Positions 1 to 17,678 of a DNA stretch of 18,257 nucleotides are shown here, one piece after another. Below the pieces are notes generated by a model. That model was not told the DNA's origin. It did no database searches and saw nothing but the letters and a program-made list of their open reading frames with translations. Made by a program: the position numbers and the translations under genes. Each line of letters starts with the position of its first letter. Position 1 is the first letter of the stretch. Where the stretch lies: UHGV virus genome UHGV-0068637; one strand, written 5' to 3'. This stretch comes from a virus.

Positions 1-37
1 CTCGTTTCGCGCGGCGATGTTCTTCGCACATCACCTC

Positions 38-3610: not shown

Positions 3611-3613
3611 AAG

Positions 3614-3644
3614 AAAACCCCGCGCGAAGCGGGGTTGTTTTTTA
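3614..3644. terminator. Bidirectional rho-independent terminator (lipoprotein gene / J gene convergent)
   Basis: Hairpin CCCCGC-GCGAA-GCGGGG followed by TTGTTTTTT on the plus strand, with an A-run on the other side giving a T-tract on the minus strand. Lies between the convergent stops at 3610 (+) and 3642 (-). Confidence 0.75.
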
Positions 3645-6600
3645 TATCCATGTTCCTGAACTTCTTGTTATAAGTATTAAACCTGGTTTTCTTATTGCTG
3701 CATTAGATGTATTGGTAAAGTTTTCCGTCACCTCTACTGTAATTGTTGGGTATGTGAGGCCAGATACACAGTGCACCGCGACAGTTGACATTGCTGGGGT
3801 TGATGCTGGCCTTTCTATATTAATTGTTTTTTGGTGTCCGCTTATATTTATAGTTACATTGATGCGAGAAGATTCACTATATGTATAGTATGACAAATCA
3901 TACGGAATCATAACGTAAACTGTTTTTGATAAACTTGATGAACTTGAATCAAGATAAGTTTTCGAAACGCGCCTGCTGCCATTTCCCCTCATTGACGGAA
4001 ATACATCCTCGTTTATCACTGACATACTTGCTACGTCACCAACAAAACTTGTAGCTTCAACTGCTCCAGTAAATTTACCGCCAGTTGCGTAAACAGTACC
4101 GTTAAACACACCAGCATAAGCGTATACCGTACCCCTTACGGTTACCTGGTTAAATACTGCGTCACCGGCTTTATCTATCGCCCATCCTGTACCGTTTTCC
4201 CAGCTGTAATTAACTGACTGTATTCGATCAGCTATTTTGGCGGAGTTGATAGTTCCGTCCTTAATAAACGCTTCTCTTACATACATTGCGCCATTGGTGA
4301 CATAGAAAGGCGTTATATATGTGCCGTTTGCTTCCGTCATCAACACGAAGCGGTCAACAAGGAAGATACACTGCGACTGGAAGTTAGTACCATCACCAGT
4401 GAGGCCAAGCGACATACCTGTCGCGTACGTCTTGCCGTAGTTGTCGGTTGCCAGCTTGATAGAGTACGACGCATCAACATTGCCTTTGAAGTCGGTCAAT
4501 GCTTTGGATGTCGTTTCTATTGCCGTTTTATTCCCGTTAACGGTCACTGTTAGCTGATCGATTTTCGTTGATAACGCCTCGTCAGCCGTAGCCATCGCCT
4601 GCGACCATTCAGTGATACTTGCGTCTACCAGTTCGAAGGACGCTGAGATCTGGCTGAATTTTTCAGCGTTTGATTCCTCATGCGTAGCTAGTGCCGTTGA
4701 TACCTCAGATACTTTCGAGTTGATTTCACCGGTAAGCGATGCGCTAAGGCCGCTTATTGCGTCTGCGCGTGCTTTTGTTTCGTCGGCGATAGCCTTGTCC
4801 ATCCTGGTAATGTTGCTCGTTACCTTGCTGTCAAGCGTTGAGATTGATGCATTCACACCGCTGATTGCTTCGCCGCGTGCACTGGTTTCGTCCGCAATGG
4901 CTTTATCGAGGCGGTTAATGCTTGCTTCCGTTTTCTTATCAAGATCTGTGATAGATGCGTTCACACCACTAATGGCTTCCGCTGTTGCCTTTTTCTCTTC
5001 CGCCATAACCTTGTCAATGCGGTCGATTTTCGCATTGGCTTCCCTGATCCCTTTCTTGTATTTGGCTGAAAGGGCAACATGCGTGTTGGTCTGAGCGATT
5101 GAGTTATTGATAAGTGCAATCGAGGTATTCTGCATACTTGCTTTGGTCTGGTTGATTTCATCGCTGTTTTTCTCAACGTTGTTTTCAACCGCACCAAGTT
5201 CGGCGCTGATACCGGATATTGCCTGCGCACGGGCGCTTGACTCGTCGGCAATGGCCTGATCCAGGCGCTTGACGCTGGCGTTTGTGTTGTTCTCAAGCGT
5301 TGTTAAGTCTGCTTTGACCTCTGTTATTGCGTCACTTCTTGCCTTCGTTTCGTCTGATATTGCTTTATCAAGGCGGGAAACGCTGGCGTCTGTTTTCTTG
5401 TCAAGGGTGTCGATCGATGCCTTCACGCCACTGATGGCCTGTGCGCGTGCGCTGGCCTCGTCAGCGATTGCCTGGTCGAGTCTGTTCACCTCTGATTCAG
5501 TGTTGCCTTCAAGCGTGCTGATGCTTGCATTAACGCTGCTGATAGCGTCAGTGCGTGCCTTCGTTTCGTCTGCAATCGCTTTATCAAGGCGATTAACGTT
5601 ACTTGTTACCTTGCCGTCAAGTGTGGAGATTGATGCCTTCACACCATTGATGGCTTCGGTTCTCGCGCTCGTTTCGTCGGCAATAGCCTTATCAAGGCGG
5701 CTTATGCTTGAATCGGTTTTCTTATCAAGTGCTGATACTGAGGCGTTCACCCCATTGATAGCTTCTGAGCGTGCGCTTGTTTCGTCTGCAATAGCTTGAT
5801 CCAGACGTTTAACGCTGGCGTCTGTTTTCTTGTCAAGTGCTGAAATGCTTGCGTTAACGTCGCTGACAGCCTGGGTTCGTGCGCTCGATTCATCGGCGAT
5901 TGCCTGGTCCAGACGTTTAACGCTGGCGTCAGTTTTCTTGTCAAGATTGTCTATTGAGGCGTTCACACCGTTAATAGCTTCGGCGCGTGCGCTGGCCTCG
6001 TCAGCCACTGCACGTTCCACGCTAGAAATCTGACCTTTAAGGTTGGAATCCATCGTGTTCATTTCTGCCGTGATGGTTTCCAGTGATTCCGCTGTCGCTT
6101 TTTTCTCTTCAGCGATAACGTTGTCAATACGGTCAATTTCCGCTTTCGTTTCCGTCCTGCCTTTCTTATACTGGGCGGTAAGGGTTACGCGCGTGTTTGT
6201 CTGTGCAAGCGAGTTGTTGATAAGCGCCAATGAAGCGTTTTGCAGGCTTGCTTTTGCCTGTGCCAGTTCGCTGTCAACTTTTTCGCTTGACACTTCTAAT
6301 AAGTCGATTCTGGACTCATGCTGACCAATATCATCGGCGTTCTCTTTAACTTTTTTGTAGAGATCTTCCGTTTCTTTTTTAAGCGTATCGGTGTCAGCTT
6401 TTATTGTTCCTGTTTCCGTGATCAGATTGTCAGTGTCAGTCCTTAAATCTTCAGTTATGTTGTTCAGGTTGTCGGTTTCGGTCCTTAAATCTTCAGTTAC
6501 GCTGGTAAGGTTGTCAGTTGTAGTTTTGAGGCTGTCAGTAGCAGTTTTCAGTTCTTCCGTGACACCATCAATGACATCGGCGCGGTCGCCAAGATCTTTG

Positions 6601-9083
6601 ATGTCACTAATCATATCTTTGAACTGCTCAGACTCCATGACGTCCTTCATCACGTAGTCGCTGATTTCGTCGAAGTTTTCAGTCGGTTTACCTGATGCCT
6701 CAACGAAGTCTGACACACCAAAGGCATTGCGCGTGCGCACATAGACGTAATAGGTGCGGCCCGTGTTCATGCCGCCAAACGTCCACTGATAACCACGTCC
6801 GGTGTATTGTGCCTTAGTGGTCACTGATGCCGGATCTGTGATTTGATTTTCACCAGCGAAATAGAACTCATAACTAGTGTCAGTGGTGAGCGTTGTTCTG
6901 CTAATCGGGTAAACTGTGGCCTGAAATACACCAGGAACCCAGTTGACACCTATCGGGGCCGCTGGCGCACCAATAACCAGGTCCACAATGCTTTCCGCAC
7001 CCTTCATGCCCGTGTCGTTTCTGCCACGGATGCCTAACGAATAGGTTCCCGCATCAATGCCATAAAAATCATGGCTGTAATTAGTGGTTTCGTAGTATTT
7101 AACCACCGCTCCCGCTGTATTGTATACGCGGATCTCAAAGGTAAGACGATGAGTTGTTGTCATCGTTTCCCATGTTGCGCGACATTGAACCGTTTCGGAT
7201 CCAACGTTCATCACTTTCAGGTTTTCAATGTTAGGCACGCGGAAGTGATTGAGCGTGTCGTTGTTGACTTCAAAGACTGCACCTTCATCAACTACAGCCT
7301 GTTTGTGAGGATCGTGCTGTGCCGCCTCTATGGTGTACACGCTGTTGTTTTCAGTTTCCGCAACGCTGACGATTCGACATAACACGGGTTTAGCTGCGTC
7401 TGTTGACACGGCGAACACAGTACCGTTACGAATCCATGCAGGGGCGGATGCAAGGGTAATTTGGTTCACGTTAACACCAGTGATCTGATGTTTTTTAAAC
7501 TTGCCATCACTGTCAAGCAGGCTGATGGTATCACCAGGGGCGATATATTCAGAGTCAACATTATCTACAGTGATAACCCTGCCACTGTTTGCCACGATGC
7601 GACCGCCCAAACGAGCGCCTGCGCGGTTATTGTCGAGTATCTCGATAATATCACCAGGGGTGAAGTGAATCGCGTCACGGGCCATTTTAAACGTGAATTT
7701 TGAGGGTTCGCGTTTTGCTGTTTCTATCAGCCATTTGCCAGCGCGGTAAGCCTGCCCGCGTGACGTGCAACCAAAAGCCTCCAACGTGGTTTCGTTGTAA
7801 CCATCGCGGGCGATCAGTTCATCATCTGCTACGTATTCTTTTGATTGTTCCCAACCGTTTTCCGGGTCAGTCCATGACACAATCACAGCGTTGTAAGATT
7901 CCGCGCGGGCGATACTTGAACGAGTAAATGCGCCATCAACGACGTTTGCATTCGTGATGGTGGCAATTGGATCTTGCGGTGCATCAATCATCACCGTAAG
8001 GCGCTGCCCGTCCCATAACGCGATACCACGGAACATGCCTGCAATGTTGTCCAGCAAGTCGCGGGCGCTCATTTGCTCAGTGATGTAAGCGTTAAGCGTC
8101 ATGCGTGGTTCAAGGCCGCCGTAACCGTCGTTTACCAACTGGTCGCAGTATTGAGAAAGCACATATAATGCGCCATCATCAACGTCAATGTAACCGGCGT
8201 GGCGGGTAAGCCCGAAGCGTTCATTTTTCACCAGATACCGGAAAAGCCATGCAGGGTTGTTGGTGTATGCCTTTTTGAAGCCACCAAGCCATAAACCTGA
8301 GTATGTGCGTGTTTCCGGGTCGTAGTTATCAGGCACGTCAACAATCAGGCCGCGCATGTGATAGGTGCGTGTCGGCGTGTCGGTATACTGATCGTGGTCA
8401 ATTACCGCGCCTGCTACAGCGGTGTGAGGATAAGACAAGTTATCGTCTATTATCTCGCTGTAACTGCTCCACCTGGTGTCATTGCGAAGTAGATCGCTTT
8501 TACTGTCTGGCGTTACGCGACGAACGCGAATATCAAACGGTTTTTCATCCGGCGCTTGGATGATGTGCGCTTCCATATACTCGCCGCTTTGTTTACCAGG
8601 GCCAATGGTAATATCTTTGACTAGTGACCACGTTGTTGACGATGATGGCTTAACATCAACCATCAACACAACAGATGTATTGTATTGATTGCCCTTGTCA
8701 TCTGACTGAACCAGAGAATCAACGCCAAGATTCAGCCTTACGCGGTTAACGTTTGGATCTGAAACGGTCCTGATTATTGGCGTATCGTGAGTCACTTTTG
8801 CGTTAACAATAACGGTTGATTCAATGGCGTTGAAGCCGTTGATTGGTGACTGGTCAGCCGTACCATTACGCCACGCCACGCTAACGCCAGGGACCGATGT
8901 GCCGCCGTTGGCGTCAGTGATTGGGCTGTCATTAAGCATTACGCTGTTTAATGGCGCTTTCTGGTTTACAGGGCCGTAGATTGGGCCTTCGCTGAGAATG
9001 TCCAAAACACGATAAAACTGTTTATGAAACAGGTTATCGTTTAATAATGTTGGTGTTTTGGCTTTGCCGCCGCCGCTACTCAT
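3642..9083 (-). CDS. J: Host specificity / central tail fibre protein (lambda J family) with large coiled-coil repeat insertion
   Basis: 1813-aa ORF with AGGAGA RBS. The N-terminal ~800 aa is collinear with lambda J ('ILSEGPIYGPV', 'NPAWLFRYLV...RFGL', 'LSQYCDQLV.DG.GG.EPRMT.NAY', 'EAFGCTSRGQAYRAGKWLI'), followed by FN3-like segments. The C-terminal ~300 aa is a J-like receptor-binding region. About 650 aa of repeat-rich alpha-helical sequence sits in between. Confidence 0.9.
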   Translation of the reverse strand: MSSGGGKAKTPTLLNDNLFHKQFYRVLDILSEGPIYGPVNQKAPLNSVMLNDSPITDANGGTSVPGVSVAWRNGTADQSPINGFNAIESTVIVNAKVTHDTPIIRTVSDPNVNRVRLNLGVDSLVQSDDKGNQYNTSVVLMVDVKPSSSTTWSLVKDITIGPGKQSGEYMEAHIIQAPDEKPFDIRVRRVTPDSKSDLLRNDTRWSSYSEIIDDNLSYPHTAVAGAVIDHDQYTDTPTRTYHMRGLIVDVPDNYDPETRTYSGLWLGGFKKAYTNNPAWLFRYLVKNERFGLTRHAGYIDVDDGALYVLSQYCDQLVNDGYGGLEPRMTLNAYITEQMSARDLLDNIAGMFRGIALWDGQRLTVMIDAPQDPIATITNANVVDGAFTRSSIARAESYNAVIVSWTDPENGWEQSKEYVADDELIARDGYNETTLEAFGCTSRGQAYRAGKWLIETAKREPSKFTFKMARDAIHFTPGDIIEILDNNRAGARLGGRIVANSGRVITVDNVDSEYIAPGDTISLLDSDGKFKKHQITGVNVNQITLASAPAWIRNGTVFAVSTDAAKPVLCRIVSVAETENNSVYTIEAAQHDPHKQAVVDEGAVFEVNNDTLNHFRVPNIENLKVMNVGSETVQCRATWETMTTTHRLTFEIRVYNTAGAVVKYYETTNYSHDFYGIDAGTYSLGIRGRNDTGMKGAESIVDLVIGAPAAPIGVNWVPGVFQATVYPISRTTLTTDTSYEFYFAGENQITDPASVTTKAQYTGRGYQWTFGGMNTGRTYYVYVRTRNAFGVSDFVEASGKPTENFDEISDYVMKDVMESEQFKDMISDIKDLGDRADVIDGVTEELKTATDSLKTTTDNLTSVTEDLRTETDNLNNITEDLRTDTDNLITETGTIKADTDTLKKETEDLYKKVKENADDIGQHESRIDLLEVSSEKVDSELAQAKASLQNASLALINNSLAQTNTRVTLTAQYKKGRTETKAEIDRIDNVIAEEKKATAESLETITAEMNTMDSNLKGQISSVERAVADEASARAEAINGVNASIDNLDKKTDASVKRLDQAIADESSARTQAVSDVNASISALDKKTDASVKRLDQAIADETSARSEAINGVNASVSALDKKTDSSISRLDKAIADETSARTEAINGVKASISTLDGKVTSNVNRLDKAIADETKARTDAISSVNASISTLEGNTESEVNRLDQAIADEASARAQAISGVKASIDTLDKKTDASVSRLDKAISDETKARSDAITEVKADLTTLENNTNASVKRLDQAIADESSARAQAISGISAELGAVENNVEKNSDEINQTKASMQNTSIALINNSIAQTNTHVALSAKYKKGIREANAKIDRIDKVMAEEKKATAEAISGVNASITDLDKKTEASINRLDKAIADETSARGEAISGVNASISTLDSKVTSNITRMDKAIADETKARADAISGLSASLTGEINSKVSEVSTALATHEESNAEKFSQISASFELVDASITEWSQAMATADEALSTKIDQLTVTVNGNKTAIETTSKALTDFKGNVDASYSIKLATDNYGKTYATGMSLGLTGDGTNFQSQCIFLVDRFVLMTEANGTYITPFYVTNGAMYVREAFIKDGTINSAKIADRIQSVNYSWENGTGWAIDKAGDAVFNQVTVRGTVYAYAGVFNGTVYATGGKFTGAVEATSFVGDVASMSVINEDVFPSMRGNGSRRVSKTYLDSSSSSLSKTVYVMIPYDLSYYTYSESSRINVTINISGHQKTINIERPASTPAMSTVAVHCVSGLTYPTITVEVTENFTNTSNAAIRKPGLILITRSSGTWI
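4730..6040 (-). repeat. In-frame 108-bp tandem repeat array (about 10 copies, 36-aa unit) inside the J-like gene
   Basis: The motif 'tcaag...gcgcgtgcgctggcctcgtcagc' recurs with exact 540-bp (5 x 108) spacing, e.g. 5401 vs 5941 and 5451 vs 5991. The protein unit is 'DKKTDASVKRLDQAIADESSARTQAVSDVNASISAL' and variants. The array is split into two blocks (about 2.5 and about 7.5 copies) by a duplicated ~250-bp spacer segment. Confidence 0.85.
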
Positions 9084-9096
9084 GGTTTTTCTCCTG

Positions 9097-9627
9097 TTAA
9101 CTTACAACGTCAAGGGCGTCTCTGTTGTTGCTTGTGTCTATGCCTAACGACCCGACATTTGAACCTATTTTCATTTCACCCAACAGGATTGGCACTGGTC
9201 TACCCTGTCCTACTTTGTTCTCAATGCTGGTGTATGTGTTGTTAGATATGGTGTTATCTTGTGCGCTTTCTGCTGATGTTTTTATCTTCATGTTGCGTGA
9301 CATAAAGATCGAGAAAGCAACGCTAACAACAGAAACACCGATTAAAATCCAGCCTACAACGCCAATCCCAGCAATACCACCTTCCACCACTGGCGCAACA
9401 ATCACTGTAGTTCCGTCAGGGTATTTACTATTAACCGCTGCCGGGGCCGTCTTTTCGTCATAATCTTTTCCGGCAATTCGTAAGCGCAAAGGTGTATTTA
9501 AAAAAGCCTTCTTGAACTCCTGATCCTGCGCGGTCAATATGCTAAGTCCTTGCGCTGGCGTATCAACGTTTAAACACACCTTGCCGTAATATCTTCGAAG
9601 ATTGCCCGTAAATCTAAATTTGAGCAT
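9097..9627 (-). CDS. I: Tail assembly protein I-like
   Basis: 176-aa ORF overlapping the 3' end of the K-like gene, as in lambda. The C-terminal 'ISNNTYTSIENKVGQGRPVPILLGEMKIGSNV' matches the lambda I 'NTYFSSLDNMVAQGNVLPVLYGEMRVGSRV' region, and there is a hydrophobic central segment. Confidence 0.8.
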   Translation of the reverse strand: MLKFRFTGNLRRYYGKVCLNVDTPAQGLSILTAQDQEFKKAFLNTPLRLRIAGKDYDEKTAPAAVNSKYPDGTTVIVAPVVEGGIAGIGVVGWILIGVSVVSVAFSIFMSRNMKIKTSAESAQDNTISNNTYTSIENKVGQGRPVPILLGEMKIGSNVGSLGIDTSNNRDALDVVS

Positions 9628-10301
9628 TTGTCAGATCTCCATATTGAATTAGTCTGTCGAACATACGCGGGCCGCATTTGCTCGCGGCGGCTTAACAGTC
9701 CGGCATTGTCATGATGCAAAACAGTGTTGTCACCAAGGTAAATCATCGCGTGGCATGGATCTGCACCCTTAAACGGCTGACGAATAATCACATCACCAGG
9801 CTGAATACTTTGCGCGTCAACCATGAAAAACCCGTTCAATGGCAGGTTTTTTATGTACAGGTTTTCCCCACGCAGCCACCACCCATCGTGGCGCTCAAAG
9901 TCCGGCAGATCCACGCCGCAAAGGTGATAGGCGTCACGAAAAAGCGAGTAACAATCCGTTTTCCCGTGCTCAAATTTACGGCCCAACAGGTGCGCAACCG
10001 GGCGGAATTTTCTTACCATGCCACCGGAACACAAATACCACGGCAGGCCGGAAATAACCTGTTGCTGCCGATCCCGTGCTGACAATACCAACGAATCGTC
10101 AGTATGGGAGTGAAAAACGGCTGTTATAACGCCTAATTCGTCAGCTTTGATATAATCGTCAGGCGAGATTTTAAAGCTGTTGTGAGGCGTTTCAGACACG
10201 TTTAAACACGGGTAAAAATAATCGTTATCTATCACCAGCCCGCATACTTCCTCGTCAGGGTGGGCCGCTGCATAGCGAATCATTTTATCTTCAAGCGCCA
10301 T
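9570..10301 (-). CDS. K: Tail assembly protein K-like (MPN/JAB + NlpC/P60 domains)
   Basis: 'HPDEEVCGLV...HSH' (JAMM-like) followed by 'GKTDCYSLFRDAYH...QPGDVI...HAMIYLGDNTVLHH' (NlpC/P60-like), collinear with lambda K. Start chosen at the ATG at 10299-10301 (AAGGTGGG RBS) rather than the TTG at 10307 used by the ORF track. Confidence 0.85.
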   Translation of the reverse strand: MALEDKMIRYAAAHPDEEVCGLVIDNDYFYPCLNVSETPHNSFKISPDDYIKADELGVITAVFHSHTDDSLVLSARDRQQQVISGLPWYLCSGGMVRKFRPVAHLLGRKFEHGKTDCYSLFRDAYHLCGVDLPDFERHDGWWLRGENLYIKNLPLNGFFMVDAQSIQPGDVIIRQPFKGADPCHAMIYLGDNTVLHHDNAGLLSRREQMRPAYVRQTNSIWRSDKCSNLDLRAIFEDITARCV

Positions 10302-10303
10302 AA

Positions 10304-11008
10304 TCAACCCACCTTGCTGGATCCTGGGAAACAGGAAATTGGTAACGGATTAGGACGCGGAAAACGCAAACGGCAACCGCTCAGGCGGTGGCTGCATTTA
10401 TCCAGCTTCGGATCACTGGTTGGCTTGTCTTTGTCAGTAGCTACGGGGCCGCCACTGTATCTGCAACCGTCACCGCGATATTGCCACTGGCAAACGTCAG
10501 CGAGGATTGTGCGCCCAGGTATAACCGCTTTATCTGCATCAATTGGCGTTGACAGTTCATATTGCACCTGGTCCGCTGTTTCTTCGCTCATCGCTTCAAC
10601 GACGTAAAAAGATACAGCCTCAATAGATGGATCTGCATCCGGGTTGCCATTGGGGAAGTTGACGGCGTCCAGGTATTTTACTTCCACCTGGCGGCGTGTA
10701 ACCTTCATTCCTCGCAGATCGTTGAAATCGTTATTCATCCCAGTGATTAGGCCGCCAATGTTGGCTACGACCATTTGGGGGCGTGAGTAAACGCCTTCGT
10801 TTTTCATTTCGAAGCCAGTAGCCTCGATTGGGTAGCTGTTGTAAGCCAATCCCTTCCAGATAACCGGGCCGTAATAGCCATTCGCGCCGGAATGGAAGCG
10901 GATAACCTCGCCACCCAGGGGCGTCAGGTCCAGTTCAAATAAGTCAATGACCGCGCCGACTCCGGCATCCACGGAATCAATAATCATTTCTGTAGGTATG
11001 CTGCGCAT
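10304..11008 (-). CDS. L: Minor tail protein L-like
   Basis: 234-aa ORF with AAGGTGA RBS. 'VIDLFELDLTPLGGEV..F', 'GLAYNSYPIEATGFEMKNEG', 'KYLDAVNFPNGNP', 'ILADVCQWQYRGDGCRYSGGPVATD...DKCSHRLSGCRLRF' are collinear with lambda L including the Cys cluster. Confidence 0.85.
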   Translation of the reverse strand: MRSIPTEMIIDSVDAGVGAVIDLFELDLTPLGGEVIRFHSGANGYYGPVIWKGLAYNSYPIEATGFEMKNEGVYSRPQMVVANIGGLITGMNNDFNDLRGMKVTRRQVEVKYLDAVNFPNGNPDADPSIEAVSFYVVEAMSEETADQVQYELSTPIDADKAVIPGRTILADVCQWQYRGDGCRYSGGPVATDKDKPTSDPKLDKCSHRLSGCRLRFPRPNPLPISCFPGSSKVG

Positions 11009-11061
11009 TTTATCACCTTGTCATTTTGTGATCGCCATCACGCTAAATCATACCAAAACGG

Positions 11062-11093
11062 TTGATCGCGTTTTTTACAATATGTATATTGTA
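11062..11093 (+). promoter_or_regulatory. Candidate sigma70 promoter with palindromic operator for cassette A
   Basis: TTGATC (11062-11067), 17-bp spacer, TATATT (11085-11090). The perfect inverted repeat TACAATAT-gt-ATATTGTA (11076-11093) overlaps the -10. Confidence 0.4.
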
Positions 11094-11136
11094 CTCAAAA
11101 GGAAGCATGGTTAACAAAATGGCGCGGAGGTGTGAC

Positions 11137-11292
11137 ATGGCTGATAAGGTGTGGAGGTTGACGGTGTTCCTTAGTGATGGCAGGGAAATGACTGTGGCCC
11201 TGTATAAAGATGAAGGCGAGGCACTTACTGACGCGCTATTACTCGCTGAAGACGAACGCGTTTTGGGGTACAGGATCGAACCTGTCAAATGA
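11137..11292 (+). CDS. Hypothetical small acidic protein (cassette A, ORF1)
   Basis: 51-aa ORF, GGAGG 6 nt upstream of the ATG. First gene after the candidate promoter. No recognisable family. Confidence 0.5.
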   Translation: MADKVWRLTVFLSDGREMTVALYKDEGEALTDALLLAEDERVLGYRIEPVK

Positions 11293-11307
11293 GGGTTATA
11301 ACAAAAA

Positions 11308-11661
11308 ATGGAAAAATACAGATTAGACGTGTGGACTGATAAATACGAATGGGAACGCATGGGGCTATTTGATACATATGAATCAGCGTGTGATGAAGGT
11401 AGTGAATTACTGCGCTGTTGGTCTAATGCTCGTTATTATTATGTTGTTCCAGTACAAGTACCGGATAAGGTGGAAGAGATGAACCCGAAAGATATTAACT
11501 TTAACGTCAATGTTGAATTTGCAGACTCTATGGATCAGGCTTGCCCTGGTGAAATACACGCAAAAGGTTTTCCGGCTGACGATCCAGAAGCAAAACGAGA
11601 ATACGAAAAAGCGGCAAAAGACTTCTGCATAGATAACCTGGGCTGTTTTAATGGCAAATAA
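11308..11661 (+). CDS. Hypothetical acidic Cys-containing protein (cassette A, ORF2)
   Basis: 117-aa ORF with protein-like composition, whereas the antisense frames are Phe/Cys/Ile-rich junk. Lies in an AT-rich region. RBS is weak. Confidence 0.55.
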   Translation: MEKYRLDVWTDKYEWERMGLFDTYESACDEGSELLRCWSNARYYYVVPVQVPDKVEEMNPKDINFNVNVEFADSMDQACPGEIHAKGFPADDPEAKREYEKAAKDFCIDNLGCFNGK

Positions 11662-11676
11662 ATAGTAGGCCAATAT

Positions 11677-11916
11677 ATGAAAATGATTGGTATTATAAAA
11701 CTCGTTGTTACATCTAACAAAAGGGAGGATTTTAATATAAAAGATAGATACCCATTATTCAAAACATCTTCTGGCAATTATTTTACTGTTGACAACTGTT
11801 TAAACTTTGTTCCGCTGACTGTGCTTGATATTTCTGGAGCAAGGGTGAAAGGGTACGGAACTGCTTGCGGTGATGATTTTGTGCCTGATATGCTATTTTT
11901 TGAAACGTGGGAATAA
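11677..11916 (+). CDS. Hypothetical protein (cassette A, ORF3)
   Basis: 79-aa ORF, weak RBS, start could be 11677 or 11683. No recognisable family. Confidence 0.45.
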   Translation: MKMIGIIKLVVTSNKREDFNIKDRYPLFKTSSGNYFTVDNCLNFVPLTVLDISGARVKGYGTACGDDFVPDMLFFETWE

Positions 11917-11921
11917 AAATC

Positions 11922-12188
11922 ATGGGGCGGCGCAATCACGGTGATTATGTGTACACGTTGAAACAGGCCGCCCGCCTCATCGGTTATCATGAGCACGAAT
12001 TTATTAATTTGCTGATTGAGCGCGGGATACTTTACCAGGTCTGTTTAACGCTGTACCCGAAAGCTAAATACCTACAGGAAAAGTTATTCATCATCATGAC
12101 GGATGAAAACCAGGTCAATCACTCATTCGTCACTGATAAAGGTGTCAACTATCTGCGCGATAACTTACAGGGCGGCAATTATGGATAA
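11922..12188 (+). CDS. Putative small helix-turn-helix DNA-binding protein (cassette A, ORF4)
   Basis: About 89 aa from the ATG at 11922 (the ORF track uses GTG at 11907). The N-terminal 'YTLKQAARLIGYHEHEFINLLIERGIL' has the pattern of an HTH recognition unit (excisionase / AlpA / MerR-like). Confidence 0.5.
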   Translation: MGRRNHGDYVYTLKQAARLIGYHEHEFINLLIERGILYQVCLTLYPKAKYLQEKLFIIMTDENQVNHSFVTDKGVNYLRDNLQGGNYG

Positions 12189-12252
12189 GGTTATCGAAAA
12201 TGTTTTGGTAGTGGCTGGCGCAATTGCCATCGTTTATGCCTTTATGAACTAA
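12181..12252 (+). CDS. Possible 23-aa hydrophobic peptide (cassette A, ORF5)
   Basis: MDKVIENVLVVAGAIAIVYAFMN. Overlaps the stop of ORF4. Very short and hand-called, so it may not be translated. Confidence 0.3.
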   Translation: MDKVIENVLVVAGAIAIVYAFMN

Positions 12253-12263
12253 TGGGGTGAATC

Positions 12264-12401
12264 ATGAAAATCGAAGTTTTAGCACTGATTGTAATGGGCT
12301 TGATTGTCTTCGGTGTTCACGCTGCTGGTTGGGACTGGGCGGCAATAGCAAACAACATGGCGCACGCTCACCCAATGAGTTTGCTGTATATTCACTACTA
12401 A
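12264..12401 (+). CDS. Small single-pass membrane peptide (cassette A, ORF6)
   Basis: 45-aa ORF, GGGGTGA RBS 4 nt upstream. The N-terminus 'IEVLALIVMGLIVFGV' is hydrophobic. A terminator follows directly. Confidence 0.45.
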   Translation: MKIEVLALIVMGLIVFGVHAAGWDWAAIANNMAHAHPMSLLYIHY

Positions 12402-12403
12402 CA

Positions 12404-12440
12404 AGAAAAACCCCGCGCGAAGCGGGGTTGTTATTATACG
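12404..12440. terminator. Bidirectional rho-independent terminator (near-identical copy of the 3614-3644 hairpin)
   Basis: CCCCGCGCGAAGCGGGGTTGTT is identical to 3618-3639. There are A/T runs on both sides, between the convergent stops at 12401 (+) and 12434 (-). Confidence 0.7.
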
Positions 12441-12631
12441 CCATCAACCAAAAATAAAACCTCCTTGCCTTCCCTGGATCTGCATCCCACATACCCGTCA
12501 CCAACATCATGAAGATACCAGGTATCGCCATTGTCAGCCTTTACAGTAAGGTCGTTGATCTCATAGTCGTCAAACAATGTAAAAGCGTCAGTTTTGTCAA
12601 CTACACAAGTCCCGTACATAACAACCTCCAT
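12434..12631 (-). CDS. Hypothetical 65-aa protein translationally coupled to M
   Basis: Its ATG (12629-12631) overlaps the TAA of the M-like gene (TAATG arrangement). Same strand as the tail genes, followed by a terminator. No recognisable family. Confidence 0.45.
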   Translation of the reverse strand: MEVVMYGTCVVDKTDAFTLFDDYEINDLTVKADNGDTWYLHDVGDGYVGCRSREGKEVLFLVDGV

Positions 12632-12984
12632 TAGCCAACAACTTGTTCAAACGTTGCGTTTAGCGTGTACACAGGCCCGTCCTTAGTCATACTCCAGCTA
12701 CGGCAAACAAAAAGCCTTTGCACGCCATCCATAGACGGCGACCAGTAAAAAGCCTCGACAGCGCCGCGCGCCCTCAAGAATGCTTCTGCCTGGATCGCCA
12801 CGTTTCCACCATCACCGCATCCTGCGCTACTGCCTTTAAAAACCAGGGTGTATTTATCAAGTAATGTGTTAATCCCTTTCGCCTGGCGCTGTTCATATCC
12901 ATCACCAAGTTTAATGACTGACACATTTGGTTCCCTGGTCACGCTGTAGCTTCTTTGTGGCGTCCATTTGAAAACTTCAGGCAT
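12631..12984 (-). CDS. M: Minor tail protein M-like
   Basis: 117-aa ORF with GGGGGA RBS. 'KLGDGYEQRQAKGIN', 'FYWSPSMDG', and the C-terminal 'TLNATFEQVVG' match lambda M ('RFGDGYSQRAPAGLN', 'FLWTPPYE', 'EFSAEFEQVVN'). Confidence 0.85.
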   Translation of the reverse strand: MPEVFKWTPQRSYSVTREPNVSVIKLGDGYEQRQAKGINTLLDKYTLVFKGSSAGCGDGGNVAIQAEAFLRARGAVEAFYWSPSMDGVQRLFVCRSWSMTKDGPVYTLNATFEQVVG

Positions 12985-13073
12985 GATTCCCCCTATAAGT
13001 TACATATTGCATACATCTTTACGCGCTTCTACGCGAAAAATTAGAACTTCGTCACAAGAATTATACCCAGTTT

Positions 13074-13112
13074 ACAAAATGGCTTCACACAGGACGTAAC
13101 AAGATGTATATA
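13074..13112 (+). promoter_or_regulatory. Candidate promoter for cassette B carrying the conserved ACAAAATGGCTTCAC motif
   Basis: ACAAAATGGCTTCAC at 13074-13088 is identical to 16293-16307. -35-like TTCACA (13084-13089), 17-bp spacer, -10-like TATATA (13107-13112). Confidence 0.35.
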
Positions 13113-13154
13113 GGAAGCAAGAAGAGAAAGCAGTACCAACAAAGGAGGGGCATC

Positions 13155-13310
13155 ATGAAACGCTATGTAGTGGTAATGCTGAACAACGCATTCGAACAGG
13201 TGGAAGTAGCGATCGTTAAAGGCTTCGATGACGCATTCAAATACGGTCAATTCATGATGAATGCAAAAGAAGATGAATACCGTGATTTCTTCCTGAAAGT
13301 GGTCAGCTAA
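13155..13310 (+). CDS. Hypothetical small protein (cassette B, ORF1)
   Basis: 51-aa ORF with a very strong RBS (AAAGGAGGGG) 4 nt before the ATG. No recognisable family. Confidence 0.55.
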   Translation: MKRYVVVMLNNAFEQVEVAIVKGFDDAFKYGQFMMNAKEDEYRDFFLKVVS

Positions 13311-13328
13311 TGGATTGTGGGGTGGGTT

Positions 13329-13583
13329 ATGAAATTGGTGGCGATTGGTAAAAACCTGAAAGCACAGAAAAACGCACAGGACCGGATCATCAAAAAGGGC
13401 AAGGCCTTATTAAACGCTTTCCTGAAAAAAGAGGCCAACCCCAAAAAATTACGCGATGGCTACGGTTATAAATTTGACATCAACCCCGATTGGCGGTTAT
13501 TCAGCGAAGATCTAAAGATGTGGTTAATTATTGACCATCTGGAATACAACCGCCACTGTGGAGTAAAAGGGGCGCATAAATGA
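13329..13583 (+). CDS. Hypothetical lysine-rich basic protein (cassette B, ORF2)
   Basis: 84 aa from the ATG at 13329 (the ORF track uses GTG at 13317). GGGGTGGG upstream. The N-terminal half is highly basic. Confidence 0.5.
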   Translation: MKLVAIGKNLKAQKNAQDRIIKKGKALLNAFLKKEANPKKLRDGYGYKFDINPDWRLFSEDLKMWLIIDHLEYNRHCGVKGAHK

Positions 13584-13591
13584 GGTGAAAT

Positions 13592-13684
13592 ATGGATGAC
13601 GATAAATTCACCTGGCGGGAGATCTGGAGCATCTGGCAGGTGATGTTTGCTCGCAGCTATATAGCAAGAAACGGAAGATTGTGA
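13592..13684 (+). CDS. Possible 30-aa peptide (cassette B, ORF3)
   Basis: MDDDKFTWREIWSIWQVMFARSYIARNGRL. GAGGTGA RBS that overlaps the ORF2 stop. Short and hand-called. Confidence 0.35.
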   Translation: MDDDKFTWREIWSIWQVMFARSYIARNGRL

Positions 13685-13702
13685 TTTGCGGAGGAAAATA
13701 AA

Positions 13703-13879
13703 ATGAAAAACCCGGCAAATAAAAGCAACGTAAAACGTATGGCGTGGGTGCTAAAATATATGGATAGTAAAGGGGATACATATACATGCCCATTTTTCAG
13801 GTATACTGACGCGGTATTTGCCAGAAGTGTACACGGAGGGAAAATTGAAAGAGGGTATACAAGTTTTGAGAATAACTAA
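13703..13879 (+). CDS. Hypothetical 58-aa protein (cassette B, ORF4)
   Basis: GGAGG RBS 8 nt upstream. Followed directly by a terminator. Confidence 0.5.
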   Translation: MKNPANKSNVKRMAWVLKYMDSKGDTYTCPFFRYTDAVFARSVHGGKIERGYTSFENN

Positions 13880-13884
13880 AAGAT

Positions 13885-13918
13885 AACCCCGGCATTGTAC
13901 CGGGGTTTTGTTTATTTG
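13885..13918. terminator. Bidirectional rho-independent terminator (cassette B / H gene convergent)
   Basis: Hairpin AACCCCGG-CATTGTA-CCGGGGTT followed by TTTTGTTTATTT. On the minus strand a T-rich tract follows the stem. Directly abuts the H stop at 13912-13914. Confidence 0.75.
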
Positions 13919-16251
13919 CGGCGAGGTTGCAACATTCCGCCAGGTCGTTGCGATTCCCTTGCCATCATTTTCATTGCTACGCGTTCCATTGTCTGTTCAA
14001 GCCTGCGACCGTCTTCGTCGCTAAATCCGTTTGTGGTCTGTACGGTGATGTTAACAGGCATATTGATGCCGCCACCATTGAAGAGATCGCGGCCAGGAAT
14101 AACCCTGCCATTTTCCCCAGGAATCATATACTGACGCCCGTTGCTCGTCTGGAATAACTCAGGAATCCCGTGTTCCCCTACGCGATACAGACTTCCACCA
14201 TTAACAGAACCACCATTATAACGTCCGCCGCCAAAAATTGACGTTGCCAGCGACATGATCGCAGAAAGTGCCGCAGCACCAGCCGCCGCCCAGCTACCAC
14301 CAGTTGACGCAGCCGTTGCCGCAGCCGCCGGGGCCGCCGCCGCAGCAATCTGACCTTGCGCCGCCACCGCGCCAGCCGTTGTACTTGCCTGGGTAGCCTT
14401 GCTTTGCGTTTCCATCATCAACTGATCTGCTATCCAGTTGGCGGCAATTTCTGATAGTTTGTTGCCAACGGTGTTAAGTATGCTACTTCCCAGGTTAGCA
14501 AAAACCTCGCTTAGTGATTGAGTACCGTTCAACAGGCCGGTAAGCGCATTACCCATGCCACCTTTTAGGCCACTGACACAAGCGCCGATCAGGCCGTTTG
14601 TGTCGCTCTGTGCCTGCCATTGTTCCCATTTCAGATCTCGGATCTGTTGCTCGTATTCCAATTGCGCCTGTCTCTGTTGCGCCTCTGTAGCGCCCAGGTC
14701 CAATAGCATTTGTTTTCTTACAGCCCATTCATTTTGCGCCTGCTTGATTGGGTCAATTTCTCCCTTAAGCTGGTCCATCGGGCTAACTATGTGGTCCCAT
14801 TTGTCGCGTAGCTCATCAACAGGGATCTGAGCTAATTCGTCTTTCAGTTCCTTGCCTATTCCTTTTTGCGCGGCCTTGTACTCAAGGAGGGTTATTTTGC
14901 CCTGGGCGAATGCAGCATCAATGGCCTTGCCGTTCTCCAGCGCTTTACGCATGGCGGCGGCGTCCTTGTTGTACTGGTCGGACACTTTTATACCTTCATC
15001 ACCAAGCCGATCAGCTTCGGATTTCTTTTGTTTTTTAGGTTTTTTCGGCTTACCAACTGGCTGATCGAATCCTGTGATCTTGCCATCGTCAGCCTCACCC
15101 TGTTTCTCCATGAACTCATCATATGCGGCGGTTGCGTTTTTAATGTCGTTTGCAAACGTCATTACTTTGCCAACGGTAGGGCCAAATTTCTTCTCGTTGT
15201 TGCTGTTTAGCTCTTCTTTGCGTTTGTCTACGATCTCCTTCATCCATTTGTAGCCATCCATTAGCGCCTTGATTGGCGTCACCATCCTGATGATTTCTTC
15301 CGCCACCTCGCCAGCTTTAACAGCAACATCGTCAAATATGTCGATGAACTCGCTACCAGCGGTTTTCAGTGTATTGAAACAGGTTGCGGCGAATTTTGCG
15401 CCTTTACCCAATCCCTCAACGCCACCAGTGATTAAGTCTATTGCTGTAACAACGCCGTCAGATATGCCGAAAAGATTATCAAGCTCTTCGACAACGCCCA
15501 TCATCTCAACTTTAAGCTCGTTGAAGGCTATGCCTGTTGTGCGCGGCAATTGTGCGAACTTCTCGTTTGTTTCCTGCGTGGAGGCCTGGATCGCGTTGAG
15601 CATCCTTTCAGCCGTGATCTTACCGTCCAGCATTTCAGCGCGGAACTGACCCATAGATAACCCCATTTGGCGGGCCATTTCCTGTACGATTGTTGGGGTA
15701 TTGTCGCGTATTGAGTTAAATTCTTCCGCCTGCAACACGCCAGCATCAATAGCCTGGCGGAACTGGCGCATGGAGTTAGATAACTGTTCCGCAGACACGC
15801 CGCCCAGACTACCAAGTTTTTGTAGCGTGCTAACCAGGTTGAGCACCTGGCCTTCCGTAGCGGATGTATTTTTTAGCGATATAGCAAGCCCTTGCCACAG
15901 GTCGCCAGTATCCTTGAGGCTTTGGCCTGTTTCTTTTGATATATCTTTCAGTCTGTTGAAAACACGTTCCGTGGCCTCCGCTTCACCTGTGAGCAGTTTG
16001 ATTTTTACGCGAAGCATTTTTGCTTGCTCCGCCATGTCAATAAACTGGCGCACAGCCTCCGCAGCAAGTAATAGATGGATAACCCTGGACAGTGCTTTGA
16101 TTGAAGTCTTAAGCGTGTTTACCTGGCGGTCAGCGCGTTTTGCGCCACGCTCGATGCTGTCAAATGCCTGGTCTGCCTGTCGTTGAGCAACGAGAAGTTG
16201 ACCAGTTTTTGCATCAACTTCGTAATAGATTGTACCTAAACTGGTTGCCAT
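13912..16251 (-). CDS. H: Tail length tape-measure protein (H-like)
   Basis: 779-aa ORF with GAGGT RBS. The N-terminal two-thirds is alpha-helical and rich in charged residues. There is a Gly/Ala-rich hydrophobic stretch near the C-terminus (AAQGQIAAAAAPAAAATAAS...SIFGGG) and a terminal 'GGSLYRVGEHGIPELF' region like lambda H. It sits directly upstream of M. Confidence 0.85.
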   Translation of the reverse strand: MATSLGTIYYEVDAKTGQLLVAQRQADQAFDSIERGAKRADRQVNTLKTSIKALSRVIHLLLAAEAVRQFIDMAEQAKMLRVKIKLLTGEAEATERVFNRLKDISKETGQSLKDTGDLWQGLAISLKNTSATEGQVLNLVSTLQKLGSLGGVSAEQLSNSMRQFRQAIDAGVLQAEEFNSIRDNTPTIVQEMARQMGLSMGQFRAEMLDGKITAERMLNAIQASTQETNEKFAQLPRTTGIAFNELKVEMMGVVEELDNLFGISDGVVTAIDLITGGVEGLGKGAKFAATCFNTLKTAGSEFIDIFDDVAVKAGEVAEEIIRMVTPIKALMDGYKWMKEIVDKRKEELNSNNEKKFGPTVGKVMTFANDIKNATAAYDEFMEKQGEADDGKITGFDQPVGKPKKPKKQKKSEADRLGDEGIKVSDQYNKDAAAMRKALENGKAIDAAFAQGKITLLEYKAAQKGIGKELKDELAQIPVDELRDKWDHIVSPMDQLKGEIDPIKQAQNEWAVRKQMLLDLGATEAQQRQAQLEYEQQIRDLKWEQWQAQSDTNGLIGACVSGLKGGMGNALTGLLNGTQSLSEVFANLGSSILNTVGNKLSEIAANWIADQLMMETQSKATQASTTAGAVAAQGQIAAAAAPAAAATAASTGGSWAAAGAAALSAIMSLATSIFGGGRYNGGSVNGGSLYRVGEHGIPELFQTSNGRQYMIPGENGRVIPGRDLFNGGGINMPVNITVQTTNGFSDEDGRRLEQTMERVAMKMMARESQRPGGMLQPRRK

Positions 16252-16289
16252 GATTTAACCTCATGAAAGTGTGATCTAGATCTCTATTC

Positions 16290-16331
16290 TATACAAAATG
16301 GCTTCACTTCAACGTATACATTTTGTATAAA
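16290..16331 (+). promoter_or_regulatory. Candidate promoter/operator for cassette C with conserved motif and 11-bp inverted repeat
   Basis: TATACAAAATG (16290-16300) and CATTTTGTATA (16319-16329) form an inverted repeat. ACAAAATGGCTTCAC at 16293-16307. -35-like TTCACT (16303-16308), 17-bp spacer, -10-like TATAAA (16326-16331). The palindrome GATCTAGATC lies just upstream (16273-16282). Confidence 0.35.
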
Positions 16332-16407
16332 GAAGTCAAAGGAAAGGGATTGAGCGAATGGATTCAGAAGGCCGGATGAACCGGAGGAAGCAAAAGAGGA
16401 TAAGAAA

Positions 16408-16494
16408 ATGAAAAACTACTACCGACCCAACGAGCATGAGCGTTATGCCGACTTCATCGAAGAAATGCTGAAAGCACTTAAAAACAAGAAATAA
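16408..16494 (+). CDS. Possible 28-aa peptide (cassette C, ORF1)
   Basis: MKNYYRPNEHERYADFIEEMLKALKNKK. AGAGGA RBS. A 17-aa upstream mini-ORF (16358-16411) overlaps its start. Confidence 0.35.
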   Translation: MKNYYRPNEHERYADFIEEMLKALKNKK

Positions 16495-16507
16495 ACGGGT
16501 TGGGTAA

Positions 16508-16615
16508 ATGGACACAATCAAAACGTTTATAGATGTATATATTACAGCATGGTTAGCATTTAATGTGATGGCTGTGCTAGTGCTGGCAATGACAACCGAA
16601 GATAAACGTAATTAA
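16508..16615 (+). CDS. Possible 35-aa membrane peptide (cassette C, ORF2)
   Basis: MDTIKTFIDVYITAWLAFNVMAVLVLAMTTEDKRN, with one hydrophobic helix. Its stop overlaps the next ATG (TAATG). Confidence 0.35.
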   Translation: MDTIKTFIDVYITAWLAFNVMAVLVLAMTTEDKRN

Positions 16616-16929
16616 TGGGGGTTATCATGGAACTGGTAATTGCATTCATCGGCTTTATCGCAACTATGGTTGTAGCTCAGAAAAAACATCTGAATATGCT
16701 ATTGGCATTCTTTGGTGCGCTGATTTTCTGGCCTGGGGTATTGATTTACGCACTGTGCGTTAACAAAAAGATGTTTAAACACTACGTCGATGCATTGACT
16801 TTCGTTAACATGGAGTACCCAAACGCAACTGACGTACAGAAAGCACAGGTTGCAACTTACCTTTACGATAACGTGTACGATATTCACGACCTGGATGAGG
16901 CAAGATGCAGATTTGCAGCATACAAATAA
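16615..16929 (+). CDS. Hypothetical small inner-membrane protein (cassette C, ORF3)
   Basis: About 100-104 aa; alternative ATG at 16627 preceded by GGGGG. Two predicted TM helices (LVIAFIGFIATMVVA, LLAFFGALIFWPGVLIYALCV) then a soluble tail. A terminator follows directly. Confidence 0.55.
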   Translation: MGVIMELVIAFIGFIATMVVAQKKHLNMLLAFFGALIFWPGVLIYALCVNKKMFKHYVDALTFVNMEYPNATDVQKAQVATYLYDNVYDIHDLDEARCRFAAYK

Positions 16930-16934
16930 AAATA

Positions 16935-16960
16935 AAGGCCCGGTTAATTCCGGGCTTTTT
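16935..16960. terminator. Bidirectional rho-independent terminator (cassette C / chaperone gene convergent)
   Basis: Hairpin GGCCCGG-TTAATT-CCGGGCC... followed by TTTTT on the plus strand and by TTTATTTTTATTT on the minus strand. The stop codon of the minus-strand gene lies in the loop. Confidence 0.7.
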
Positions 16961-17624
16961 CTTGCTCGCGTTTTTTCATCAATTCCAGCACCCTTTTAGC
17001 GGCCTCCATTTGCTCATCATAATCACGTTTATTTATATGAACGTTTGGCTTACGTTTCTCGTTTCTTTCGTCTGGTGGCGTTTTAGCGCGTACAGCGGCC
17101 CTGTATCCGGTCATTGTCATGCCCCATGCTTCAGATTCAGACAATCCCAGGTGAGCAACGGCAGAATAAACATACTCAAGGATGTCGAATGTCTGCTTAT
17201 AGTCGCCTTCCTGCTCCTCTCCAGCGTCTTCATCTGGTCCGTCACCAATTAAGCCGTGATACATGCAGTGTTGCGCCAGCGTGATAACGTCGCTGGTGGG
17301 CATCAACCCAGGTTTCAGTCTCAACTTACCCGAAGGAGTAAAGCTGCATTCGCCCAATAACTGGCCTATTTCGCATTCTGAGCAACATTTCAGGACGTGG
17401 ATGGACGTTTGCACTAACTCACCATAACAACGCGCCATAATGCGATTGCGGAGGTCTGGATCCGTTGGCAAACGCTGTGGATATTTACCACCGTGCACAG
17501 TTGCGAAGTATTCGACCAATTCCCTGTCACTGCCGATCTTAGCCATTGCAGCAAAGCAGGGATTGAACACATACCGCCTGCCATCAACCACAGCCGCAAA
17601 TTGTCCTGTTCGAACATGAATCAT
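16944..17624 (-). CDS. Putative tail assembly chaperone (position of lambda G/T), Cys-containing
   Basis: 227 aa from the ATG at 17622-17624 with AAGGTGA RBS (the ORF track extends to a TTG at 17663 through a terminator hairpin). It lies between the putative tube protein and the tape measure. The acidic C-terminal half (DGPDEDAGEEQEGDY) fits a chaperone, but no G/GT frameshift was identified. Function is assigned by position only. Confidence 0.4.
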   Translation of the reverse strand: MIHVRTGQFAAVVDGRRYVFNPCFAAMAKIGSDRELVEYFATVHGGKYPQRLPTDPDLRNRIMARCYGELVQTSIHVLKCCSECEIGQLLGECSFTPSGKLRLKPGLMPTSDVITLAQHCMYHGLIGDGPDEDAGEEQEGDYKQTFDILEYVYSAVAHLGLSESEAWGMTMTGYRAAVRAKTPPDERNEKRKPNVHINKRDYDEQMEAAKRVLELMKKREQEKARN

Positions 17625-17633
17625 AGCTGTCAC

Positions 17634-17661
17634 CTTAAAAATAAAGGGGCCATGTGGCCCC
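17634..17661 (-). terminator. Rho-independent terminator downstream of the putative major tail protein gene
   Basis: Perfect hairpin GGGGCC-ATGT-GGCCCC (17646-17661 on the plus strand) followed on the minus strand by TTTATTTTTAAGG. Sits between the stop at 17679 and the next minus-strand start at 17624. Confidence 0.65.
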
Positions 17662-17678
17662 AATGTCAGTGTTTGTTG

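Follow-up and report, generated by a model that had tools for sequence, protein, structure and literature searches.

The tail gene cluster of the virus genome UHGV-0068637 raises the question of how genes that follow one another on one strand can all be expressed when hairpins resembling transcription terminators stand between them. We analyzed one stretch of 18,257 nucleotides (nt) of this genome (18.3 kb, here called the window), in which an earlier reading of the letters, referred to below as the sequence-only reading, had placed five minus-strand hairpin terminators and had proposed that they cut the tail cluster into separate units, so that antitermination or internal promoters would be needed. 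Judged by nucleotide and protein similarity and by synteny with mEp021-type genomes, the window covers the tail region of a phage that adds a new member to the mEp021 (mEpimmI) group, which comprises temperate, Nus-dependent coliphages (PMC11893012). Our results confirm the hairpins and place four of the five at 3' ends shared by a tail gene and a cassette of genes on the opposite strand. We consider it about 80% probable that these elements are bidirectional terminators bounding cassettes that are transcribed in the lysogen and that a Q-modified polymerase reads through them in lytic growth.

A strict scan for perfect stems of at least 6 bp with at least 5 GC pairs, a loop of 3 to 8 and at least 5 T in 8 returned exactly five terminator sites on the minus strand, all where the sequence-only reading had put them, whereas 200 dinucleotide-preserving shuffles averaged 0.18 sites and never gave more than 2. 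Each of the five is followed on the minus strand by a U-rich tail, and RNAfold gave energies of -12.6 to -17.8 kcal/mol for the sites with short flanks. They begin 4 to 17 nt past the stop codon of a tail gene, with the exception of the one at 16955-16938, which spans the stop codon. As sequence features (a GC-rich stem-loop and then a U-rich tract) the five hairpins are intrinsic terminators, from which we infer termination itself, and the view that such elements divide the tail cluster is correct. When the same scan was applied to the plus strand, four of the five hairpins also qualified. These four lie at convergent junctions with stop-to-stop gaps of only 31, 32, 32 and 14 nt, and because T-runs flank both sides between convergent stop codons, we read them as bidirectional terminators, each serving a tail gene on one strand and the final gene of a cassette on the other.

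The hairpins were compared across ten related genomes (seven phages and three prophage loci, the latter extending only from the I gene to the tube gene), making 11 with the window. A hairpin is present at all five junctions wherever the junction can be read, with stems kept and loops differing between genomes. A compensatory stem change from C:G to U:A occurs in mEp013 and mEp515, and mEp021 has unrelated hairpins at two of these junctions, one following the tape measure gene, where mEp013 has one too, and one following J, where mEp515 has one too. Since loops vary, a paired change occurs and different hairpins take the same place, it is the structure and not the sequence alone that is maintained. 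The GenBank records of the relatives annotate terminators at the same junctions (TERM_8 to TERM_13 in mEp021; T11 to T21 in mEp554, mEp010, mEp044, mEp013 and mEp515), often with the same sequence and several of them on both strands, although these annotations are predictions only. Going by a term search, the paper on the group (PMC11893012) apparently does not discuss tail terminators, morons or opposite-strand genes, and uses the word "terminator" once, in a figure legend on the early region. A search of the whole window against Rfam at gathering thresholds matched no family, and therefore no known regulatory RNA explains the hairpins.

Two of the hairpins are the same element. At 3616..3636, in the 31-nt gap between J (minus) and the lipoprotein gene of the first island (plus), and again at 12409..12429, in the 32-nt gap between a conserved tail cluster open reading frame (ORF) of 65 amino acids (aa) (minus) and the last gene of the second island (plus), stands an identical 21-mer, AACCCCGCTTCGCGCGGGGTT, with a T-rich tail and readable on both strands. 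In MagusPhagus, mEp010 and mEp044 the loop of the copy after the 65-aa ORF is flipped. We considered whether the 21-mer (AACCCCGCGCGAAGCGGGGTT) could be a generic or mobile palindromic element and rejected this, as its 17 exact occurrences in the 2.9 million contigs of IMG/VR are all at two homologous convergent junctions, after the 65-aa ORF or between J and the lipoprotein (Lpp) gene. The hairpin after the tape measure gene H, at 13885..13907, reads AACCCCGGTA-CAA-TGCCGGGGTT and then ATCTTTTAGT; it is also two-sided and fills the 32-nt gap between H (minus) and the last gene of the third island (plus).

The fourth convergent hairpin, at 16938..16955 (GCCCGG-AATTAA-CCGGGC and then CTTTATTTTT), serves both strands at the junction between the DUF6246 gene (minus) and the fourth island (plus). 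Its plus-strand T-run is invariant in the 11 genomes, whereas in the tail direction the number of T in 10 nt ranges from 4 to 8 between genomes, the run being poor in mEp021, mEp010 and mEp515. Because only the plus-strand T-run is invariant, the constant need at this site seems to be the ending of the cassette transcript and not the attenuation of tail transcription. The loop contains the DUF6246 stop codon in all 11 genomes, with the last Ala-Arg encoded by the 5' arm (16944-16955, minus strand), although both the loop and the stop codon (UAA or UAG) differ between genomes. A terminating ribosome covering the stem might weaken termination in the tail direction only.

The fifth hairpin, at 17646..17661 on the minus strand (GGGGCC-ACAT-GGCCCC and then TTTATTTTTA), differs from the other four in being unidirectional and is the only one between same-strand genes, those for the tube protein and DUF6246. 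It is kept in the 11 genomes with variable loops and with one pair change, from GGGGCC/GGCCCC to GGGGCT/AGCCCC, and its plus-strand tail is not T-rich in 9 of the 11. The T-run abuts the ribosome-binding site of the DUF6246 gene directly, and therefore leaves no space for a promoter between the two. The tube protein is the most abundant tail protein, and this hairpin probably either attenuates downstream transcription or stabilizes the 3' end of the tube mRNA. The sequence-only reading had further proposed that terminator strength sets a ratio of tube >> chaperone > tape measure > tip proteins. Such an effect could be supported at the tube hairpin and at none of the others; it is the only site where the idea would fit naturally, and an mRNA-stabilizing role would fit it equally well.

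The cluster is not one uninterrupted minus-strand operon as first described, since four opposite-strand cassettes interrupt it and four of the hairpins are the shared 3' ends of these cassettes. Plus-strand ORFs occupy four stretches among the tail genes, which we call islands A (3185-3641, 43.1% GC), B (11009-12433, 42.0%), C (12985-13911, 41.9%) and D (16252-16943, 39.9%), with a GC content of 40 to 43% overall against 47 to 50% in the tail genes. Matches to PHROG families were found for 6 of 10 island ORFs tested (E-values of 1e-19 to 1e-42), two island ORFs exceed Pfam thresholds, and substitutions relative to the related genomes concentrate at the third codon position of the plus-strand frame (for example, 12/2/79, 30/6/130, 12/14/96 and 11/16/83 at positions 1/2/3). 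On the strength of these matches and of the position-3 bias, the plus-strand ORFs are real protein-coding genes. Minus-strand ORFs in the islands were considered as true genes, as in the deposited mEp554_92 and mEp554_93, and were ruled out by the same plus-frame substitutions and by plus-strand calls in RefSeq. In mEp554 these two island D genes (15677-16228) are deposited on the strand of the tail genes, and the codon position counts and the RefSeq prophage orthologues indicate that the strand calls are probably wrong.

The same four slots are filled in all seven phages, as are all three slots within range in the three prophage loci, and both the lengths (640-1186, 922-2330 and 1006-1425 nt across genomes) and the contents vary. 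In Erwinia phage Midgardsormr38, which has homologous tail tip genes, the tape measure gene, one small ORF, M, L, K, I and J follow one another on one strand with no islands, and because the same genes are contiguous there, we regard the islands as insertions. Inserted between otherwise adjacent genes, apparently without a role in assembly, variable in content and atypical in GC, they would by their sequence features fit the moron concept of Hendrix and Juhala in the definition quoted in PMC2629481.

Island A carries a single gene (3362-3610, plus), whose 82-aa product has the lipobox LTGC and is 99% identical to Lpp010, a lipoprotein that when expressed from a plasmid excluded mEp010, mEp044, mEp554 and lambda (PMC11893012, section 3.7). 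Island B has five plus-strand ORFs, at 11137-11292, 11308-11661, 11677-11916, 11922-12188 and 12264-12401, the fourth with a KilAC/ANT domain that passes the Pfam threshold and the fifth encoding a small hydrophobic protein. Of the three plus-strand ORFs in island C, that at 13329-13583 encodes 84 aa with the ParE-like toxin domain PF24732 (45 bits against a cutoff of 24.4) and has an orthologue named ParE family toxin-like protein in RefSeq. The 51-aa ORF directly upstream (13155-13310, phrog_29810) likely forms with it a toxin-antitoxin pair (13155-13583, plus), as their arrangement suggests, and the last ORF lies at 13703-13879. Island D, whose cargo varies among genomes, has three plus-strand ORFs (16408-16494, 16508-16615 and 16627-16929) for small, hydrophobic and likely membrane proteins. 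PADLOC gave no defense system match for ten island proteins, and the cassettes therefore cannot be called known defense systems.

Each island opens with a non-coding divergent region, at 3185-3361, 11009-11136, 12985-13154 and 16252-16407 for islands A to D. These regions are 81 to 98% identical to those of the relatives, compared with 50 to 91% at third codon positions of nearby tail genes, and this slower change than at neighboring synonymous sites indicates selection on the non-coding sequence. The window contains 8 copies of the octamer CATTTTGT, where 1.5 would be expected, and 7 of them lie within the divergent regions, all four of which have it, often as an inverted pair. The regions of islands C and D, upstream of M and of the tape measure gene, are paralogous (z = 9.2).

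Promoters were scored with a heuristic sigma-70 weight matrix built from general consensus frequencies, on which AT-rich intergenic DNA gives inflated scores. On this matrix, a candidate in the tail direction ranks in the top 0.013% of positions in each of the four divergent regions, the -10 elements of these candidates are conserved among genomes, and the candidates overlap plus-strand candidates back to back. For the tape measure gene, TTGAAG-15-TAGAAT (16286..16312, minus) lies within the inverted repeat TATACAAAATG-N18-CATTTTGTATA and overlaps TTCACT-17-TATAAA in the island D direction (16303-16331, plus), and although the tape measure protein of mEp013 shows only 42% identity, the core of the candidate is kept there as well. 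Upstream of M and the 65-aa ORF, GTGAAG-17-TATAAT (13060..13088, minus) shares overlapping -35 elements with TTCACA-17-TATATA in the island C direction (13084-13112, plus). The candidate for L, K, I and J is TTGTTA-18-TACAAT (11088..11117, minus), which overlaps the top plus-strand candidate in the window, TTGATC-17-TATATT in the island B direction (11062-11090, plus). The side tail fiber gene has a candidate with the extended -10 TGgTAGAAT (3218..3246, minus), which is invariant through to the start codon in 8 of 8 genomes. A general promoter scan of the window gave no excess over shuffles (22 against 25.6 expected), and the promoter claims therefore rest on position, conservation and the heuristic matrix.

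Two further features of these regions are recorded here as observations. Three of the four regions have a GATCACA box, which includes a Dam site, shortly past the tail-direction -10 candidate (3230-3236, 11027-11033 and 16270-16276, minus), and in two cases the box is extended to GATCACAAAATG; its enrichment is weak (6 against 2.3 expected, with 6 reached in 7 of 200 shuffles) and was not used as evidence. The early region of mEp021 contains, at about 16.5 kb, the palindrome GATCACA...CATTTTGT...TGTGATC. The 5' leaders of the first genes in islands A and D are related (3300-3370 and 16360-16416, plus), with a small CCGG-loop-CCGG hairpin, a similar ribosome-binding site and the ORF start ATGAAAAAC, and the ribosome-binding site and start recur a third time at 13691-13711 (repeat families D8, D11 and D18).

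The means of crossing the terminators comes from the relatives, as that part of the genome lies outside the window. The mEp021 protein gp37 matches the Q antiterminator family PF03589 (Pfam, 1e-29) and is 84 to 100% identical across all seven sequenced relatives; its closest homologues outside the group are the gene 23 or Q-like proteins of P22-like phages, at about 39% identity. The gene lies upstream of the lysis, head and tail genes in the same orientation, with roughly 30 kb of late genes, and just upstream of the holin gene mEp021 has a promoter-like site and then a strong terminator, like PR'-tR' of lambda. N-like and Q-like proteins are mentioned in the paper on the group (PMC11893012). 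A Q-modified polymerase is expected to disregard the terminators. The alternative put forward from the sequence, that either antitermination or internal promoters would be needed, thus finds both routes favored, the first by the Q protein of the relatives and the second by the conserved candidates before the tape measure, M, L and side fiber genes.

Put together, these observations suggest that opposite-strand cassettes, or morons, interrupt a lambda-like tail gene order at four fixed slots. Each cassette would start in its conserved divergent promoter region and end 5 to 8 nt past its last stop codon in a hairpin with T-runs on both strands, the same hairpin overlapping the stop codon of the upstream tail gene or lying 4 to 6 nt beyond it. 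Promoters of the cassettes' own probably drive their transcription in the lysogen, and the transcripts, which would end at the four hairpins, would include those for the superinfection exclusion lipoprotein, the ParE-like toxin module and the KilAC domain protein. The shared hairpins would shield the tail genes from antisense cassette transcription and would also halt unmodified polymerase moving in the tail direction. In lytic growth, a terminator-resistant, Q-modified polymerase from the late promoter upstream of the lysis genes most likely transcribes the tail genes and would override cassette transcription, with the tail-direction promoters at the block starts as possible supplements. That the cassettes share their 3' ends with tail genes is the simplest reason why four of the hairpins exist.

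Several points weigh against this account. Termination, promoter use and timing are predictions, and the Q gene and the late promoter are known from the relatives only. Constitutive tail-direction promoters would make tail proteins in lysogens, which seems wasteful, and for this reason the candidates may have low or controlled activity, or may not be promoters. The heuristic matrix, with its inflated scores in AT-rich intergenic DNA, also gives several equally high hits inside the AT-rich island B, and the plus-strand candidates of islands A, C and D score a modest 7.1 to 8.7, compared with 13.6 for island B. Finally, exclusion by Lpp was assayed from a Ptac plasmid, so that expression of the cassettes in lysogens is a prediction for every member of the group.

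It is a serious possibility, though not one that we favor, that the tail genes depend on read-through entirely, with one Q-modified late transcript from the promoter upstream of the lysis genes crossing all hairpins and islands, and with the promoter-like sequences of the divergent regions serving the plus-strand cassettes only. The conservation of the PF03589 protein in all sequenced relatives and its co-orientation with about 30 kb of lysis, head and tail genes agree with this, as does the PR'-tR'-like arrangement before the mEp021 holin gene, and with no promoter room after the tube hairpin, at least that hairpin must be crossed. However, in three of the four divergent regions the highest-scoring candidate faces the tail direction and not that of the cassette, and the -10 elements of these tail-direction candidates are conserved across genomes. 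The same candidates are what an opposite explanation would build on, in which most transcription of each tail block starts at a promoter belonging to that block, the hairpins truly terminate and five or six units have their protein ratios set by promoter and terminator strengths. The ranking of sigma-70-like candidates in the top 0.013% in all four regions, non-coding conservation above that of synonymous sites and U-rich tails on the tail strand at all five hairpins in the window would all be accounted for. We nevertheless find such independent operons unlikely, as the DUF6246 gene lacks a promoter of its own, the T-run of the DUF6246 hairpin is poor tailward in three phages while its plus-strand counterpart is invariant, constitutive promoters would yield tail gene expression in lysogens, and the group keeps a Q antiterminator whose purpose is not obvious if there are no terminators for it to cross.

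The hairpins could also act mainly after transcription, as 3' stabilizers or processing boundaries guarding long segments of late mRNA from exonucleases. This would suit the tube hairpin, which comes after the gene for the most abundant tail protein, and a comparable hairpin, annotated as TERM_7, follows a large virion structural gene farther upstream in mEp021; mRNA half-life could still depend on a hairpin under Q-type antitermination. We find this very improbable as the main role, since the T-runs beside the stems are conserved on the relevant strands, which terminators need and stabilizers do not, and since bidirectional termination explains more simply why four hairpins coincide exactly with the ends of convergent genes. 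A more elaborate scheme, which we consider distinctly doubtful, is that the four divergent regions are copies of one regulatory module by which each slot is switched locally. Its back-to-back promoters, which overlap, would be unable to fire together, and the module might be read by a phage factor or through Dam methylation; the lysogen would express the cassettes and keep the tail blocks silent, and lytic growth would turn this around. If so, the tail would be expressed from several coordinately switched units and not from one lambda-like late transcript. Cassette transcripts ended by shared terminators, with Q-dependent read-through in lytic growth, remain our preferred explanation.

The remaining features of the window fit its assignment to the mEp021 group. 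It matches seven phages of the group at 85 to 90% identity over 50 to 76% of its length, its tail proteins are mostly 75 to 99% identical to those of group members, and related prophages were found in 35 of 5426 complete Escherichia coli genomes, the best being 92.6% identical and covering 97% of the queried part. The tail genes (38..18155, minus) are those for the major tail or tube protein (17679-18155), DUF6246 (16944-17624), the tape measure protein H (13912-16251), the M-type minor tail protein (12631-12984), the conserved 65-aa ORF (12434-12631), L (10304-11008), K (9570-10307), I (9097-9627), J (3642-9083) and the side tail fiber (38-3184). The canonical tail gene order of lambda is V-G-T-H-M-L-K-I-J, and the order here, tube, DUF6246, tape measure, M, L, K, I, J and side fiber, is lambda-like.

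The label "chaperone" that the sequence-only reading gave to the gene at 16944-17624 was positional. Its product matches DUF6246 in Pfam and phrog_791 in PHROG, a family of unknown function, and no chaperone family of the lambda G/GT type, and it is only the location between the tube and tape measure genes that suggests a chaperone role. It is a single reading frame of 226 aa that ends in the terminator, with an acidic linker, and a second frame for a G/GT-type frameshift product is not evident.

Some further observations concern the tail tip. The J protein of 1813 aa contains about 8 tandem copies of a 108-nt (36-aa) unit (window 4740-6117, minus) of the type RLDQAIADE.SAR..AI.GVNASI..LDKKTDASV, a segment that is long and probably coiled-coil; the J genes of the relatives measure about 4.2 to 5.5 kb, and the length of the repeat segment varies among them. 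Three overlapping 81-nt copies spaced by 42 nt in the side fiber gene (window 72-236, minus) give 14-aa repeats near the C-terminal end. In mEp021 (8132-8698) and mEp515 (7108-7674) an HNH endonuclease gene stands between I and J on the tail strand. The window has none there, 13 nt separating the two genes, and island C of mEp515 also holds a gene with an HNH motif.

At the edge of the window, past the side tail fiber gene, a probable sixth terminator (1..10, minus) is cut so that only its 5' arm, GAAACGAG (positions 8-1), is present, and it was judged by homology to T21 of mEp554 (GAAACGAGGCTAACGCCTCGTTTC and then TTTTT). Between the stop codon of the side fiber gene and this terminator is a possible 11-codon ORF with the ribosome-binding site AGAGGTG (window 1-37, minus), which is conserved in mEp554 (ATGTGCGAAGAACATCGCCGCGCGAAACGAGGCTAA), runs off the edge of the window and may be due to chance. 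At the other end, a copy of the repeat GGGCGCTTTATTTTTA upstream of the tube gene (18201-18216) was considered as a terminator and rejected, as it has no stem and, judging from synteny with mEp021 gp60, falls within the coding sequence upstream.

In comparison with known systems, the islands resemble the morons of lambdoid and HK97-like phages in being accessory genes without a role in assembly, placed between genes that are adjacent in related phages, with apparently independent expression, lower GC, variable content and functions in lysogenic conversion that include superinfection exclusion. They differ in that there are four cassettes at fixed slots in one tail cluster, all antisense to the tail genes, in that the terminator is common to the cassette and the upstream tail gene, and in that the promoter regions are related, those of islands C and D being paralogous and CATTTTGT occurring in all four.

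The closest precedent is the "ant moron" of P22 (immI region), which is crossed by polymerase modified by gp23 and which, according to PMC2629481, is believed to influence how frequently late transcripts extend to the tailspike gene. In both cases a temperate phage that has a Q-type antiterminator (gp23 in P22) carries variable cassettes among the virion genes of its late operon, and the nearest outside homologues of the mEp021 Q protein are the P22-like ones noted above. The cargo in P22 is often an antirepressor-type gene and a superinfection exclusion gene; Mnt/Arc-type repressors and a sar-like antisense RNA were not found in the window, and the Rfam search matched nothing. In P22-like phages there is a single slot of this kind, with no morons elsewhere in the morphogenetic cluster (PMC2629481). 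The group studied here has four slots, its cassettes all run antisense, their bidirectional terminators are shared with tail genes and their promoter modules are related to one another.

Bidirectional terminators have been described in E. coli (Ju et al. 2019), where, according to bioRxiv 10.1101/2022.10.23.513370, they are unlike intrinsic terminators and are proposed to depend on polymerase collision. The two cases are alike in that one compact element sets both convergent 3' ends and different in that the four elements of the window have the form of canonical hairpins flanked by T-runs. The layout is ordinary for temperate phages, its terminators are already annotated in close relatives, and it implies no new kind of mechanism. 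For annotation, it means that the apparent terminators inside this tail operon are the footprints of antisense accessory cassettes, and it fixes the coding strand of the islands, some of whose genes are probably called on the wrong strand in one deposited relative. The group carries both N-type and Q-type antiterminators, is common in gut E. coli and would be a convenient one in which to study antiterminated late transcription against convergent cassette transcription. Set beside the lambdoid, P22 and E. coli examples, the window offers a compact and well-conserved case of several cassettes, probably expressed in the lysogen, within an essential late operon, each insulated by a predicted bidirectional terminator that it shares with a tail gene.

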